From positions 18,947 through 82,946 of the forward strand of contig JBAXUB010000001.1 of the NCBI GenBank assembly GCA_037129895.1: a DNA stretch of 64,000 nucleotides, written 5' to 3'. Of the stretch, positions 18,752 through 46,130 are shown one piece after another. The translations under genes were made by a program, and so were the position numbers. This stretch comes from Candidatus Tayloriibacteriota bacterium. Lineage in GTDB: Bacteria; Patescibacteriota; Minisyncoccia; Phycocordibacterales; PALSA-1337. Positions within the stretch are counted from its first letter, which is position 1, and each line of letters opens with the position of its first letter. The notes under the pieces were generated by a model. That model did not search any database. It worked only from the letters and a program-made list of their open reading frames with translations, and was not told the origin of the DNA.

Positions 18752-19402
18752 CTACTTGAGCAGTTTGCGCATCTCCTCCAAGAAATCACTTTTCACTTCC
18801 TCGAAAGGCCTATTGGCGTCTATCGTAACATGCGGCACTTTCTTCAGAAATTTCAAATACCCCTTCCTCACCTTTTCGTGGAATATGATCTTTCTATTAT
18901 CGAAATGATCATACTTGGTAGTATTTCTGTTCGACTCATTGCGAGATCTCGCACGACGCAGACCAACCAGAGGATCCACATCCACAAACACATAGAGATC
19001 TGGGACATGTACCAACTTGTCACGAAGTAACCAGAAGATTTCCTCGAGATCGCCATTTGTTTGAGCTGCGACTTGATATGCAAAAGAAGAACCATCAAAT
19101 CTATCGGCCACCACCGACATTCCCGATTTCAATGACGGCTCGATCACATTCACCACATTGTCGAAGCGGGCGGCAAACATAAGACACAGTGTCGTCTCAG
19201 CCGGCGCAGTCTTCGCTAGAGGATTCTTGAGTGCAGCATTCCTGATGATCTCCGCATAAGGCGATCCTCCAGGTTCACGAGTTATGAGAGCAACACCCGG
19301 CATCTCCTTCGCGAGAGCGGCCATGAGTGAAGATTTACCGGAACCTTCTCCACCTTCAACAGCGATGAACATCGGTCTCTTTTTATTTCTCAATTTTTTC
19401 AT
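18752..19402 (-). CDS. tmk: Thymidylate (dTMP) kinase family dNMP kinase
   Basis: P-loop FIAVEGGEGSGKSS and TREPGGS motifs. Confidence 0.85.
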   Translation of the reverse strand: MKKLRNKKRPMFIAVEGGEGSGKSSLMAALAKEMPGVALITREPGGSPYAEIIRNAALKNPLAKTAPAETTLCLMFAARFDNVVNVIEPSLKSGMSVVADRFDGSSFAYQVAAQTNGDLEEIFWLLRDKLVHVPDLYVFVDVDPLVGLRRARSRNESNRNTTKYDHFDNRKIIFHEKVRKGYLKFLKKVPHVTIDANRPFEEVKSDFLEEMRKLLK

Positions 19403-37179: not shown

Positions 37180-37180
37180 G

Positions 37181-37265
37181 TGCGCGAGAGAGGACTTGAA
37201 CCTCCAAGCCCATAAGGGCACATCCACCTCAAGGATGCGTGTCTGCCAATTTCACCACTCGCGCG
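37181..37265 (-). tRNA. tRNA-Leu (GAG), class II with long variable arm
   Basis: GCGCGAGTGGTGAAATTGGCAGACACGCATCCTTGAGGTGGATG...GGTTCAAGTCC...CTCGCGCA. Confidence 0.9.
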
Positions 37266-37282
37266 TCTTTTTGTCAACTACA

Positions 37283-37957
37283 TTAACCCTCAAGACTCTT
37301 TAACGTTCTTACTATAGCTAATATAGCTTCAAATTTCAACTTCTTTCTAGTTAAATACAGAATCTCTCCACCCATGTATAAATGAGTCATAATCTTTTCC
37401 GCTTCACTTTTAGCGTATTTTAATTGGAAACATGAACTATTTTTGCTTTTTGTAACATGACCTTTGACGTTGATGCGATTCAACAGTTCCCATCTTATCC
37501 AACTTAGAAACACTGGACTTGCCGAACAAAATCCTAAATACCAAAGGAACGATACTTTCCACCGCCTATCATAATATGAATGTATATAACCATCTCCATC
37601 GAATACACCACGAAGAAAATGAAAGAAGTACTCCGAGGGTATCGCTATCTCTTTTAATACTTTAGACTTCGCAGGGCCAATACCAATCTGAAGTAGGAAC
37701 TTAACAAAATTTACGTCGCCAATTTGGATCCGATAAGTGTGACTGAACTTATAACCACTATAATTGTGACCAATGTTGCTGTGGATATTCAAACATCTCA
37801 TAATGTTTCTTATTTGTTCGAAATCCTTTGAGACAAAAGATACATGCCTCCTATCTCCATATACACACCCATCTGTAACAAATAGTCCGATAGCATATGC
37901 AAAATTTGCTGACCACTCGATTTTTACTTTTCCTTTTGGTTTTGGTCCTCTTTTCAT
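37283..37957 (-). CDS. Free-standing two-motif LAGLIDADG homing endonuclease, directly 5' of tRNA-Leu
   Basis: Motif 1 FAYAIGLFVTDGCV; motif 2 FLRGVFDGDGYI. Confidence 0.85.
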   Translation of the reverse strand: MKRGPKPKGKVKIEWSANFAYAIGLFVTDGCVYGDRRHVSFVSKDFEQIRNIMRCLNIHSNIGHNYSGYKFSHTYRIQIGDVNFVKFLLQIGIGPAKSKVLKEIAIPSEYFFHFLRGVFDGDGYIHSYYDRRWKVSFLWYLGFCSASPVFLSWIRWELLNRINVKGHVTKSKNSSCFQLKYAKSEAEKIMTHLYMGGEILYLTRKKLKFEAILAIVRTLKSLEG

Positions 37958-38062: not shown

Positions 38063-38503
38063 TTATTTCTTCCCCTCTTCTACAGTTTCTTTCTTTTCTT
38101 CTATAACCGGAGCTACACCATCTGTACTAACAACCTTCTCCTCCCTAACCGCCATGATGCGACGCATCTGGTGACGAATCTCCTTGGCAGCCTTCCTGCG
38201 GATGAAGTATAGTTTACCGCGGCGAACCTTAGACCTACGAATAGTCTCTATCTCATCGATCATAGGAGAATACAATGGGAATATGCGCTCTACTCCGACA
38301 CCATCAATAACTTTTCTAACAGTGAAAGTAGCGCCAGCTTGGTGGCCATGTTTGGTAGCCAAAACTAGACCTTCGAATGCCTGAAGACGGAATTTACCCT
38401 TGTCTTCCTCAATCTTCTGCCATACACGAACGAGATCACCTGAACGAATGTCCATTTTCTCGCGTTCAGCTATATTTGCAGTTGTAATTACCTTGGTAGC
38501 CAT
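38063..38503 (-). CDS. rplS: 50S ribosomal protein L19
   Basis: ...FEGLVLA...FTVRKV.DGVGVERIFPLYSP... with a lysine-rich C-terminal tail. Confidence 0.9.
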   Translation of the reverse strand: MATKVITTANIAEREKMDIRSGDLVRVWQKIEEDKGKFRLQAFEGLVLATKHGHQAGATFTVRKVIDGVGVERIFPLYSPMIDEIETIRRSKVRRGKLYFIRRKAAKEIRHQMRRIMAVREEKVVSTDGVAPVIEEKKETVEEGKK

Positions 38504-44299: not shown

Positions 44300-44683
44300 T
44301 TACTGATTCTTACTACGATCTAGATAGCTCTGCAGGATGATAGCCGCGGCCGAAGCATCCGTGAGAGCCGTCTTGCCTTGCCAACGCTCAGCCTGAATAC
44401 TGCTCATGAATTCTGCCTCTAGGTATACAGTGAAGCCTCGTGCTTCGAGCTCATCTTTCAAGTCCATGCTGTCCAACAATATCTCGTTTGGTTCACCTTT
44501 GTAATTACGTGACTCACCCATCACGATCTCCTTTGTTTCGTTATCAATGGCGATCTTTTCGATCTCTTCTAATAGGGTTGGTGTATTCAAAATAACCGAA
44601 ACTGGTAAGGCAAACTCGCGTTTCTCATCTGAAACAGCTACCCCCACCCTCTTTGATCCGTAATCGATACCTAGTATACGCAT
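44300..44683 (-). CDS. ruvX: Putative pre-16S rRNA nuclease / Holliday junction resolvase-like protein YqgF/RuvX
   Basis: MRILGIDYGSKRVGVAVSD. Confidence 0.85.
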   Translation of the reverse strand: MRILGIDYGSKRVGVAVSDEKREFALPVSVILNTPTLLEEIEKIAIDNETKEIVMGESRNYKGEPNEILLDSMDLKDELEARGFTVYLEAEFMSSIQAERWQGKTALTDASAAAIILQSYLDRSKNQ

Positions 44684-44725
44684 GAATAGAGCATACCATG
44701 TTAAGTAAAATGCTATAATAGAAGT

Positions 44726-45748
44726 ATGCTTCAGCAGTCTAATGATAAAAGAGTTAAATTTCAACCGGGTGAACAAGCAAGGTTTCTCGTGCGTGTAATC
44801 AATAAACTGTGCATTACGCAGACAACTCTTGCAACCATGGCGGGCATAAGTGTTCGACGTATTTCCGATTGGAAAGCAGAAAAAAGTACGATGCCATTAT
44901 CAGTTGTGAATTTACTATCAAAAAAATCTGGACTCAACTTACCGCACGGTATTCACTACATAGATCGATATGCCCATACGAGAGCGGCCGGAAAAAAAGG
45001 TGGAAAGGCAACTATAGAGAAATACCACGGTTTCCCCGACCCAAATAGGACACGCCTTTCTGCATGGAAAAAATGGTGGGAAGAATCTGGACGAGAAAAA
45101 ACTATCACCGCATCAACAAAGCCTGCGAGAATCCCGAATGATTCTTCCAACCTGGCGGAATTTACAGGAATAATGATGGGAGATGGCGGAATTTCAAAAT
45201 ACCAAATAAGTGTGACTCTAAACAAAATTGATGACTATGACTATTCATTGTTTGTACGTAACCTTATGAATAACCTTTTCCAAGTGGTTCCTTCGTTAGT
45301 CAAAAAACTAGATGAAAAAGCACTCATTTTGAATATATCACGACTTCAATTGGTCAGATTTTGTAATGATCACCTCAATCTACCAACTGGACACAAGATT
45401 CGTCATGGATTATATGTTCCTTCGTGGATAATGAAGAAAACCGTCTATAAAAGATCATTTCTCCGCGGACTTTTTGATACTGATGGTTGTGTAGTTATAG
45501 AAAAACATAAGGTCGACAAAGTGGTGTACTCTTATGCTCGCCTAAACTTCACGTCATATTGTCCAATATTATCGAAGTCCACATTCCAAATATTGACCGA
45601 GCTTGGATATACACCGAGGGTGCGTAGAAAAGAAAGATCAATACAACTTGAAAATTATGACGAAATATGTGATTATTTCAGAGTTGTAGGAACGCACAAT
45701 CCTAAACACACGGAACGTCTGAGGAAAGTCGGAATATTCCGTTCGTAA
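44726..45748 (+). CDS. LAGLIDADG homing endonuclease with an N-terminal HTH, directly 5' of tRNA-Ser
   Basis: Motif 1 LAEFTGIMMGDGGI; motif 2 FLRGLFDTDGCVVI; XRE-like HTH near the N-terminus. Confidence 0.85.
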   Translation: MLQQSNDKRVKFQPGEQARFLVRVINKLCITQTTLATMAGISVRRISDWKAEKSTMPLSVVNLLSKKSGLNLPHGIHYIDRYAHTRAAGKKGGKATIEKYHGFPDPNRTRLSAWKKWWEESGREKTITASTKPARIPNDSSNLAEFTGIMMGDGGISKYQISVTLNKIDDYDYSLFVRNLMNNLFQVVPSLVKKLDEKALILNISRLQLVRFCNDHLNLPTGHKIRHGLYVPSWIMKKTVYKRSFLRGLFDTDGCVVIEKHKVDKVVYSYARLNFTSYCPILSKSTFQILTELGYTPRVRRKERSIQLENYDEICDYFRVVGTHNPKHTERLRKVGIFRS

Positions 45749-45757
45749 GAATCCAAA

Positions 45758-45844
45758 GGAGGAGTGGCAGAGTGGTCGATTGCACCGCTCTTGAAAAGCG
45801 GAACCTGGGAAACTGGGTCGTGAGTTCGAATCTCACCTCCTCCG
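45758..45844 (+). tRNA. tRNA-Ser (TGA), class II
   Basis: GGAGGAGTGGCAGAGTGGTCGATTGCA-CCGCTCTTGAAAAGCGG-long variable arm-GTGAGTTCGAATCTCAC-CTCCTCCG. Confidence 0.9.
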
Positions 45845-46130
45845 CAAATGATCTAAAGAAATCTCTAATAGTCCTTATAACAGGACATCGATTTTTTGAC
45901 CATTACTGAAACCAGAAATGCACAATTCCCGCCATATTTAGGATGAATACGAAAAACGTGAGCATGCAGAACATGATCAGGCCGCCGAAGGTGAATACTT
46001 CTAATACGAATTCTTTCATATATTAATAAAAGCATACAATCAATATTTTAACTACTCTGAGGACTCCCTACTATTAACTTATAAACATCGTCACGGTACA
46101 TTCCCCTGCGAGGAATGCTATAATTCTCAC

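Follow-up and report, generated by a model that had tools for sequence, protein, structure and literature searches.

Two families of free-standing LAGLIDADG genes, probably selfish homing endonuclease genes, at the 5' edges of tRNA-Ser and tRNA-Leu(GAG) genes in Patescibacteria

Our data revealed two LAGLIDADG genes, each lying immediately 5' of a co-oriented tRNA gene, in a 64,000-nucleotide (nt) stretch of the genome of a Candidatus Tayloriibacteriota bacterium (assembly GCA_037129895.1, contig JBAXUB010000001.1, forward-strand positions 18,947 to 82,946; hereafter, the window). The first, HEG1 (44726..45748, + strand), encodes a 340-residue protein with an N-terminal helix-turn-helix (HTH) and precedes a tRNA-Ser gene; the second, HEG2 (37283..37957, − strand), encodes a 224-residue protein and precedes a tRNA-Leu gene. 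We consider it probable that they belong to two unrelated patescibacterial families of free-standing, selfish homing endonuclease genes (HEGs) that are fixed at the 5' edge of tRNA-Ser and tRNA-Leu(GAG) genes, respectively. The adjacency itself is far beyond chance, since a co-oriented tRNA gene of the family's own identity was found at the 3' end of the open reading frame (ORF) in 72 of 76 family 1 cases and in 72 of 73 family 2 loci. An earlier note, made from the letters of this DNA alone, had proposed a systematic association of LAGLIDADG and tRNA genes rather than a coincidence, and the wider sample bears this out.

For family 1, the sample consisted of the 80 best loci and the window, of which 76 (the window and 75 loci, each from a different genome) had downstream DNA that could be read; for family 2, it consisted of 80 metagenomic loci and the window, of which 73 were testable for a downstream tRNA. 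We called tRNA genes with ARAGORN and Rfam and domains with Pfam, and assessed folds with an AlphaFold2 (AF2) model and Foldseek. Relative to the stop codon of family 1, the start of the downstream tRNA-Ser gene ranges from −56 to +32 nt (median, +9), and its anticodon is gct in 52 cases, tga in 12, cga in 7, and act in 1; no tRNA of another identity occurs at that position in the family 1 set. In the window, HEG1 is followed by tRNA-Ser(UGA) (45758..45845, +; ARAGORN; Rfam, 60.5 bits) after a gap of exactly 9 nt, just as the earlier note had read it. In many family 1 members the ORF even runs into the tRNA gene, giving C-terminal tails like GGVG or GEVPKWL, which are also present in 27 of 120 members of an independent set of cluster representatives. 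Within one HEG1 clade that shares a genomic backbone, in which a tRNA-Arg(gcg) gene on the opposite strand is followed by tRNA-Ser genes, the endonuclease gene stands before tRNA-Ser(gct) or before tRNA-Ser(tga), representing a switch between paralogous tRNA genes (L016 versus L005 and L045; L015, L024, and L043).

The four exceptions within family 1 retain traces of the same arrangement. Locus L042 has an intact tRNA-Ser gene 63 nt past the stop codon. At L035 (5042-5291), a degenerate pseudo-tRNA-Ser (82% identity over 77 nt) lies at the stop and is followed by an intact copy; at L037 (4967-5137), a 15-nt tRNA 5' fragment takes this place, again followed by an intact copy; and at L063 (1294-1320), only a tRNA 3'-end remnant is left at the stop. 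The tRNA debris at the latter three loci suggests repeated breakage and repair at this tRNA gene. We also considered the inserts at L035 and L037 as decayed second endonuclease copies, for which blastx gave nothing convincing.

Family 2 exhibits the same architecture with a different tRNA. The tRNA-Leu gene starts between −88 and +32 nt from the stop codon, its anticodon is always GAG, and the single exception is a copy with a premature stop. In the window, tRNA-Leu(GAG) (37180..37264, −) follows the HEG2 stop by 18 nt, which confirms the second case that the earlier note had counted at a tRNA-Leu and assigns it to an unrelated family. The usual context is rluD-rplS-HEG2-tRNA-Leu(GAG), with the L19 gene directly upstream in 62 of 80 loci and, in the window, at 38063..38503 (−). 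ARAGORN called the window tRNA-Leu, and Rfam scored it at 48.3 bits with laxer filters; the Rfam default filters at the gathering threshold missed it, as they did the tRNA-Ser genes of L037 and L042, and class II tRNAs may be undercalled by fast filters.

Two further suggestions of the earlier note fared less well. Both families are indeed co-oriented with a class II tRNA, but a role for class II tRNAs as such would be tentative: there are only two families, and LAGLIDADG ORFs of other families at L011 (6776-7534, +) and L034 (550-1572, +) are not located 5' of a tRNA. One of these ORFs lies directly after tRNA-Leu(taa); the other, which is extended at its N terminus by a long stretch, is followed by an unrelated gene. 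Furthermore, a recognition sequence shared by the two flanking tRNA regions was not apparent; each family has its own tRNA.

Both families are large. HEG1 has hundreds of full-length relatives (330 to 350 residues; 33% to 57% identity), which form 838 clusters at 50% identity (E ≤ 1e-30) and are encoded by at least 484 species-level genomes; the 80 HEG1 genomes listed are, judging by their titles, metagenome-assembled genomes of the candidate phyla radiation (CPR), or they are bins with generic or apparently wrong labels. HEG2 has 572 database matches at 50% to 64% identity, and a protein identical to it is on record from a Candidatus Taylorbacteria genome.

With respect to the protein, HEG1 matches the Pfam family LAGLIDADG_3 (PF14528; E value, 2e-7; 31.5 bits versus a curated cutoff of 22.5), and so do all 35 family 1 members that we compared. 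The two motifs quoted in the earlier note were both recovered, FTGIMMGDG at residues 146 to 154 (45161..45187, +; Asp153 codon, 45182-45184) and LRGLFDTDG at residues 246 to 254 (45461..45487, +; Asp253 codon, 45482-45484). Across the 35 sequences, residues G152, D153, and G154 of the first motif and G248, L249, D251, T252, D253, and G254 of the second are invariant. The AF2 model (mean pLDDT, 89) consists of a helical HTH bundle (residues 16 to 68), two long helices (residues 83 to 129), and a two-domain LAGLIDADG core. Its best structural match is the archaeal intron enzyme I-Tsp061I (2DCH; E value, 3e-11; TM score, 0.76), followed by intein endonuclease domains, I-AniI, and I-DmoI. Profile, motifs, and the modeled pseudodimeric alpha-beta-beta-alpha-beta-beta-alpha fold fit a monomeric two-motif LAGLIDADG protein, and HEG1 is best described as such a protein with putative cleavage activity. 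The XRE/Cro-C1-type HTH domain (residues 16 to 68; 44771..44929, +) is seen as model helices, and in the window protein the profile matches are weak, to HTH_3 and HTH_26 at residues 30 to 65 and to the PDB entries C.BclI, CylR2, HigA, and P22 C2 at residues 20 to 72. The family as a whole supports it, with HTH_3 matching in 10 of 35 members (best E value, 9e-7) and HTH_26 in 8 of 35, so that the XRE-like HTH proposed in the earlier note holds. One might speculate that this domain extends DNA recognition or represses the element's own promoter.

HEG2 also matches LAGLIDADG_3 (E value, 1e-10) and carries its two motifs at 37868-37894 and 37589-37615 (−); D29 and the DGDG stretch at residues 120 to 123, D122 included, are invariant in 34 family 2 sequences. 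It lacks any HTH. Since HEG1 and HEG2 are only about 26% identical, and this over one motif region, we assign them to two different families that have the same gene-tRNA architecture. Neither is intron or intein encoded, as each ORF occupies an intergenic position next to an uninterrupted tRNA, and around the two genes Rfam finds only tRNAs and no intron family. A free-standing type fits, with each gene located between conserved genes and its presence or absence being the difference from relatives.

This difference is best seen in close relatives of the window genome, which we picked via their L19 protein (75% to 89% identical), checking the HEG2 site in eight of them and the HEG1 site in four of the same genomes. 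The HEG1 site is empty in L169, L170, and L171, where ruvX lies 118, 61, and 63 nt, respectively, from the 5' end of tRNA-Ser(tga), compared to 1,074 nt in the window, and it is occupied in L172 by a HEG1 copy of 57% identity at exactly the same site. An intact HEG2 is present in none of the eight relatives. Four have clean empty sites, with rplS 86 to 122 nt from tRNA-Leu(GAG) (L163, L164, L166, and L167) as opposed to about 730 to 860 nt at occupied sites; L161 (3038-3648, equivalent to L169 10538-11148) retains a frameshifted, 3'-truncated HEG2 pseudogene; and three have other genes after rplS. For both families the insert approximates the ORF in size, its exact boundaries not being fixable to the nucleotide because the alignments of the window with L164 and L171 are too diverged. 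A homing endonuclease gene would be expected to show just such a mixture of intact, pseudogenized, and empty sites among close relatives. HEG1 is present and HEG2 absent in GCA_025355565.1; as the HEG1-carrying genome of L172 is without HEG2, each family is gained and lost independently of the other. The HEG1 copies of the window and L172 share 57% identity, compared to 82% for ruvX and 83% for L19, indicating that HEG1 evolves faster than its neighbors.

Some other features of the rplS/tRNA-Leu region deserve mention. In L161, the HEG2 pseudogene and tRNA-Leu(GAG) are separated by an opposite-strand gene that encodes 416 residues and has no known function. Serine recombinase or Zn-ribbon recombinase genes lie nearby in L165 (3480-4985, −) and L168 (5250-5426, −), both without HEG2, which may mark the region as a hot spot of mobile DNA of other kinds. 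A 96-residue ORF in L165, considered as a HEG2 remnant, had no hidden Markov model match.

The elements are also interwoven with the promoters of their tRNAs. In most family 2 loci, the final codons of the gene, R-K-R-L-K-I-x-K-x-L-A-I-V-G, spell a sigma-70-type promoter for tRNA-Leu, TTGAAA-17-TATAGT; the window copy lies at 37311..37339 (−), and the pattern recurs in 47 of 72 loci. Synonymous codon choice in family 2 is skewed toward it, with Leu encoded by TTG in 87% (background, 21%) and Ile by ATA in 87% (background, 35%). The same promoter string is kept at sites empty of HEG2 (...TTAGCTATAGT), and the tail of the HEG2 ORF is thus the tRNA promoter. Closer to the tRNA, a perfect TTGACA box (37272-37277, −) lies 7 to 9 nt upstream of tRNA-Leu(GAG) +1, as it does in many family 2 loci (e.g., L081, L092, L098, L109, L112, L143, L154, and L160), and a similar TTTGAAAA occurs at the empty sites L163 and L164; with a 17-nt spacer, this box would pair with a −10-like TGgTGAAAT in the D-arm, placing the start inside the tRNA. 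In the large tRNA-Ser(gct) clade of family 1, the −35 box falls within conserved K-H-L-K-R-Y codons (TTG, 68% versus 18%) and the −10 box just after the stop codon. The clade of the window copy often has no room for a separate promoter, so that there the tRNA is presumably cotranscribed with the ORF, and tRNA-Ser(UGA) of the window is probably cotranscribed with HEG1.

At the other end of the element, a TAnnnT hexamer, mostly preceded by TG, ends 5 to 9 nt (nearly always 6) before the ATG in 51 of 56 family 1 loci, a geometry found at 15% of random positions. The window copy has the extended −10 element TGcTATAAT (44711..44719, +), with 6 nt between the hexamer and the ATG of HEG1. We infer the transcription start from this geometry, and a −10 box at such a distance predicts a leaderless HEG1 mRNA. 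HEG2 loci have, by eye, a similar leaderless geometry.

The 5' end of HEG1 itself resembles a tRNA-Ser gene. In a single register, family 1 junctions agree with the tRNA-Ser majority sequence, with an average of 14.6 matches out of 24; for 349 other registers the average is 6.2 (standard deviation, 0.77; maximum, 9.7). The junction consensus GGAG.TATGGCTGAA..GTTTAAA stands against the tRNA sequence GGAGGGGTGGCAGAGTGGTTTAAA, and the match ends abruptly after position 24. It is specific for serine, as other tRNA identities score 8.5 to 10.8. In the window this tRNA-Ser relic (44720..44743, +; tRNA positions 1 to 24) comprises the 6 nt before the ATG and codons 1 to 6, and is more eroded, matching at 12 of 24 positions. 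The ATG aligns with tRNA positions 7 to 9, so that, given the register match, the N-terminal peptide M-A-E-S/W-F-K is a translated D-arm. Basal Microgenomates members do not have the relic, nor do about a quarter of the cluster representatives. That the first 24 nt are a tRNA-Ser relic implies that a tRNA-Ser gene itself took part in the original insertion or in a subsequent fusion. Possibly, the element inserted inside a tRNA-Ser gene, the 5' part of which was regenerated downstream; it is also possible that the ORF was joined by a deletion to an upstream tandem tRNA-Ser gene, of which the promoter and first 24 nt remained. Family 1 loci often contain tandem tRNA-Ser genes. The same register test of family 2 against tRNA-Leu yielded 8.8 of 24 at offset −6, which is not significant (null, 6.1 ± 0.9; maximum, 9.6), and a relic was rejected for that family.

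Considering these data, we propose a model for the life of the element. The gene would fill the short spacer between an upstream gene and the tRNA, as the occupied and empty sites indicate. A −10 box 6 nt before the ATG would drive a leaderless mRNA, and the tRNA would be expressed either by cotranscription, the likely case in the window, or from a promoter within the last endonuclease codons. The enzyme may then cut HEG-less alleles at or near the tRNA promoter or 5' part, and repair from a HEG-bearing allele would copy the gene in, possibly together with the adjacent tRNA. After fixation, decay and loss would leave the mixture of intact, pseudogenized, and empty sites seen in the sequences.

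This opens the way for another, bolder hypothesis, to which we give tentative credence as a possibility that falls short of probable. In this scenario, the elements target the tRNA gene itself: they enter at the end of the D-loop (around nt 24/25), take over the promoter and first 24 nt as their own leaderless start, and carry a replacement for the tRNA 5' part, or a whole tRNA allele, at their 3' end, by which the host would survive the insertion. If so, their spread would replace tRNA alleles horizontally, and the element would be a tRNA-rebuilding homing cassette, a design undescribed for any homing endonuclease. In a small sample, tRNA-Ser(tga) of the window shares 88% identity with its HEG-linked counterpart in L008 and 73% to 75% with those of closer HEG-less relatives, which hints that the tRNA may travel with the element or be an immune allele. 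A diversification of the D-arm in HEG-linked tRNAs was considered and rejected, as HEG-linked and HEG-free tRNA-Ser genes show similar ranges of D-arm types.

A number of observations weigh against these selfish, tRNA-directed readings. We infer endonuclease activity, homing, and the target site from sequence. The downstream tRNA is complete, and if the target lay inside it, self-immunity would be left unexplained; furthermore, the same D-arm type can occur in HEG-linked and HEG-free tRNA-Ser(gct). The signal for cotransfer of the tRNA rests on few tRNA-Ser(tga) genes, and for tRNA-Leu there is none, since tRNA-Leu identity correlates with neither HEG2 nor L19; we therefore dropped the immune-allele and cotransfer idea for that tRNA. 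The sets of 80 best loci are skewed toward intact copies, and prevalence in close relatives was sampled in three to eight genomes. Sequence comparisons also point to a clear vertical component in descent, as the family 1 tree roughly follows host taxonomy and the nearest neighbors of HEG2 and L19 agree in 13 of 50 loci, representing short-range codescent. The correlation between HEG2 and L19 is flat (r = 0.03), which saturation may partly explain; because of this plausible saturation and the short-range codescent, we have reduced our initial claim that the flat correlation proves rampant transfer. Finally, long residence with intact ORFs could mean a benefit to the host.

These observations bear on three other explanations. 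The protein might be a domesticated, WhiA-like host regulator that controls transcription of the adjacent tRNA gene, binding in or close to its promoter and staying linked to it because it acts in cis. The N-terminal HTH, the overlap of the gene with the tRNA promoter, the resemblance of the HEG1 5' end to tRNA-Ser DNA, which could serve as an operator, the hundreds of intact full-length copies, and the partly vertical descent would all suit such a role. WhiA proteins likewise combine a LAGLIDADG-type fold with an HTH, and the Pfam LAGLIDADG_WhiA model matches 5 of 35 family 1 members, weakly. However, the HTH of WhiA is C-terminal, its catalytic residues are lost, and it is broadly conserved in its clades, whereas the HTH of HEG1 is N-terminal, the catalytic Asp is invariant, and the distribution is patchy. 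A regulator is hard to reconcile with the finding that most of the closest relatives lack the genes and have tRNA-Ser(tga) and tRNA-Leu(gag) under promoters of the ordinary kind, with the HEG2 pseudogene of L161, and with catalytic Asp residues that are invariant in both motifs of both families, which is unexpected for a pure DNA-binding protein. Family 2, moreover, has the same architecture without an HTH, and HEG1 evolves faster than its neighbors. We therefore regard this explanation as unlikely.

The vertical component would also suit plain inherited synteny, in which one ancient insertion beside a tRNA gene was passed on vertically as a decaying passenger and the association would say nothing about targeting, and the conserved rluD-rplS-HEG2-tRNA-Leu order is in line with it. 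What makes this decidedly improbable is that family 1 stands before three or four tRNA-Ser isoacceptors in many gene contexts, with switches inside clades and with the window's ruvX neighbor recurring in only 3 of 80 family 1 loci, and that two unrelated families arrived at the same architecture. A passenger would also hardly keep intact ORFs and invariant catalytic residues over 35% to 60% sequence divergence, nor does it sit well with the empty sites in close relatives or with HEG2 and L19 pairs that are strongly discordant (L093-L128, HEG2 69% and L19 37%; L112-L154, L19 76% and HEG2 52%). A nuclease useful to the host, cutting foreign or paralogous tRNA genes in defense against tRNA-carrying phages or for tRNA gene conversion or amplification, appears very improbable, the least credible of these explanations. 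The phage endonuclease SegB, discussed below, provides a precedent in that it cuts tRNA genes and leads to their amplification, and the duplicated tRNA-Ser or its fragments beside HEG1 in L035 and L037 could be read in this manner. Yet HEG1 matches no known defense family in PADLOC, HEG2 has only a generic "homing endonuclease" match, no phage homologs of HEG1 were found, no defense genes were noted beside either gene in the window or in related loci, and a selfish element accounts for the patchy distribution at least equally well. On the basis of the missing phage homologs and PADLOC families, a phage or defense origin of HEG1 was rejected. Two families of selfish, free-standing HEGs thus remain the explanation that we consider probable.

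If these genes are indeed such elements, SegB of phages T4 and T6 appears to be their closest known functional analog. SegB is reported to be a free-standing endonuclease, encoded within the tRNA clusters of phages, whose cutting of tRNA genes leads to amplification of these genes (PMC13096335; PMC2330249). It also promotes inheritance of the tRNA region, and its homologs are often colocated with tRNAs (PMC2330249, via PMC13096335). As in HEG1 and HEG2, the segB gene is free-standing, encoded in neither an intron nor an intein, and located among or next to tRNA genes. In contrast, SegB is a GIY-YIG enzyme of phage genomes with a loose sequence preference and many cleavage sites, whereas HEG1 and HEG2 are LAGLIDADG proteins of bacterial chromosomes with putative cleavage, each family keeping to a single tRNA identity and to a fixed distance from the tRNA +1, and overlapping its promoter. 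Since the catalytic domain is LAGLIDADG and not GIY-YIG or HNH, the element would be SegB-like in its working without belonging to the SegB protein family.

Within the LAGLIDADG enzymes, I-Tsp061I, I-DmoI, and PI-PfuI have in common with our proteins the fold, the two-motif monomer, and the catalytic acidic residues. LAGLIDADG homing endonuclease genes are common in rRNA genes of the CPR (PMC11270868). Unlike intron-, intein-, or rRNA-borne LAGLIDADG_3 members, however, the ORFs described here lie upstream of an uninterrupted host RNA gene, and compared to the intron- and intein-borne ones, family 1 proteins have in addition an HTH at the N terminus and a helical linker (about 140 residues). 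Group I introns with HEGs are known from tRNA genes, with a LAGLIDADG enzyme in cyanobacterial tRNA-Arg(CCU) and an HNH enzyme in patescibacterial tRNA-Asn (PMC13011429). There, too, homing endonucleases exploit tRNA genes as conserved targets, but from a self-splicing intron in the anticodon loop, whereas the tRNAs here are continuous. Integrative elements that target tRNA genes likewise use a tRNA as landing site, and a duplicated tRNA piece, comparable to the relic of nt 1 to 24, flanks the insert. Those elements use an integrase and duplicate the 3' part of the tRNA; the HEG1 insert, in contrast, measures about 1 kb, lacks an integrase, and duplicates the 5' part, the relic being old and diverged. 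In the full-text literature that we searched, outside of which most subscription journals lie, there was no description of free-standing LAGLIDADG genes at the 5' edge of tRNA genes, nor are such genes mentioned in PMC11270868 or PMC13011429.

The niches known for homing endonuclease genes are introns, inteins, and phage intergenic sites; our proposal would extend this list to the promoter or 5' edge of particular tRNA genes on bacterial chromosomes. It would also show that two large families of such elements reside in the genome-reduced CPR bacteria, which bears on how homing elements persist in small genomes. It would explain hundreds of ORFs that are labeled hypothetical, "XRE regulator," or even "Lon-like protease." The proteins are candidate meganucleases whose natural targets can be guessed from empty sites. 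The architecture is unusual in itself, with tRNA promoters in coding sequence, apparently leaderless mRNAs, and an N terminus translated from a tRNA D-arm. Should the tRNA travel with the element, this would constitute a route for the horizontal replacement of tRNA alleles.

The remaining features concern the surroundings of HEG1. Downstream, a terminator-like hairpin with a T-run (45871..45896, +), found by a consensus scan only, may mark the end of the HEG1-tRNA-Ser unit. The left edge of the insertion site is formed by the divergent gene ruvX (YqgF; 44300..44683, −), the true start of which homology places at the ATG at 44683 (MRILGIDYG). The longest ruvX ORF begins at a TTG at 44776, and the extra part (44684-44776, −) overlaps the HEG1 start by 51 nt. 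Elsewhere in family 1, tRNA-Ser(ACU) genes occur in L026 (891-977, −), L046 (3841-3928, −), L055 (1001-1088, −), L057 (3845-3934, −), L062 (1822-1909, −), L063 (123-210, −), and L068 (4389-4477, +). A tRNA-Ser with A34 is unusual for bacteria, and the anticodon loop TTACTAA was read directly in the five genes that we checked. Most of these genes are divergent and lie upstream of HEG1, and one lies directly downstream of it.

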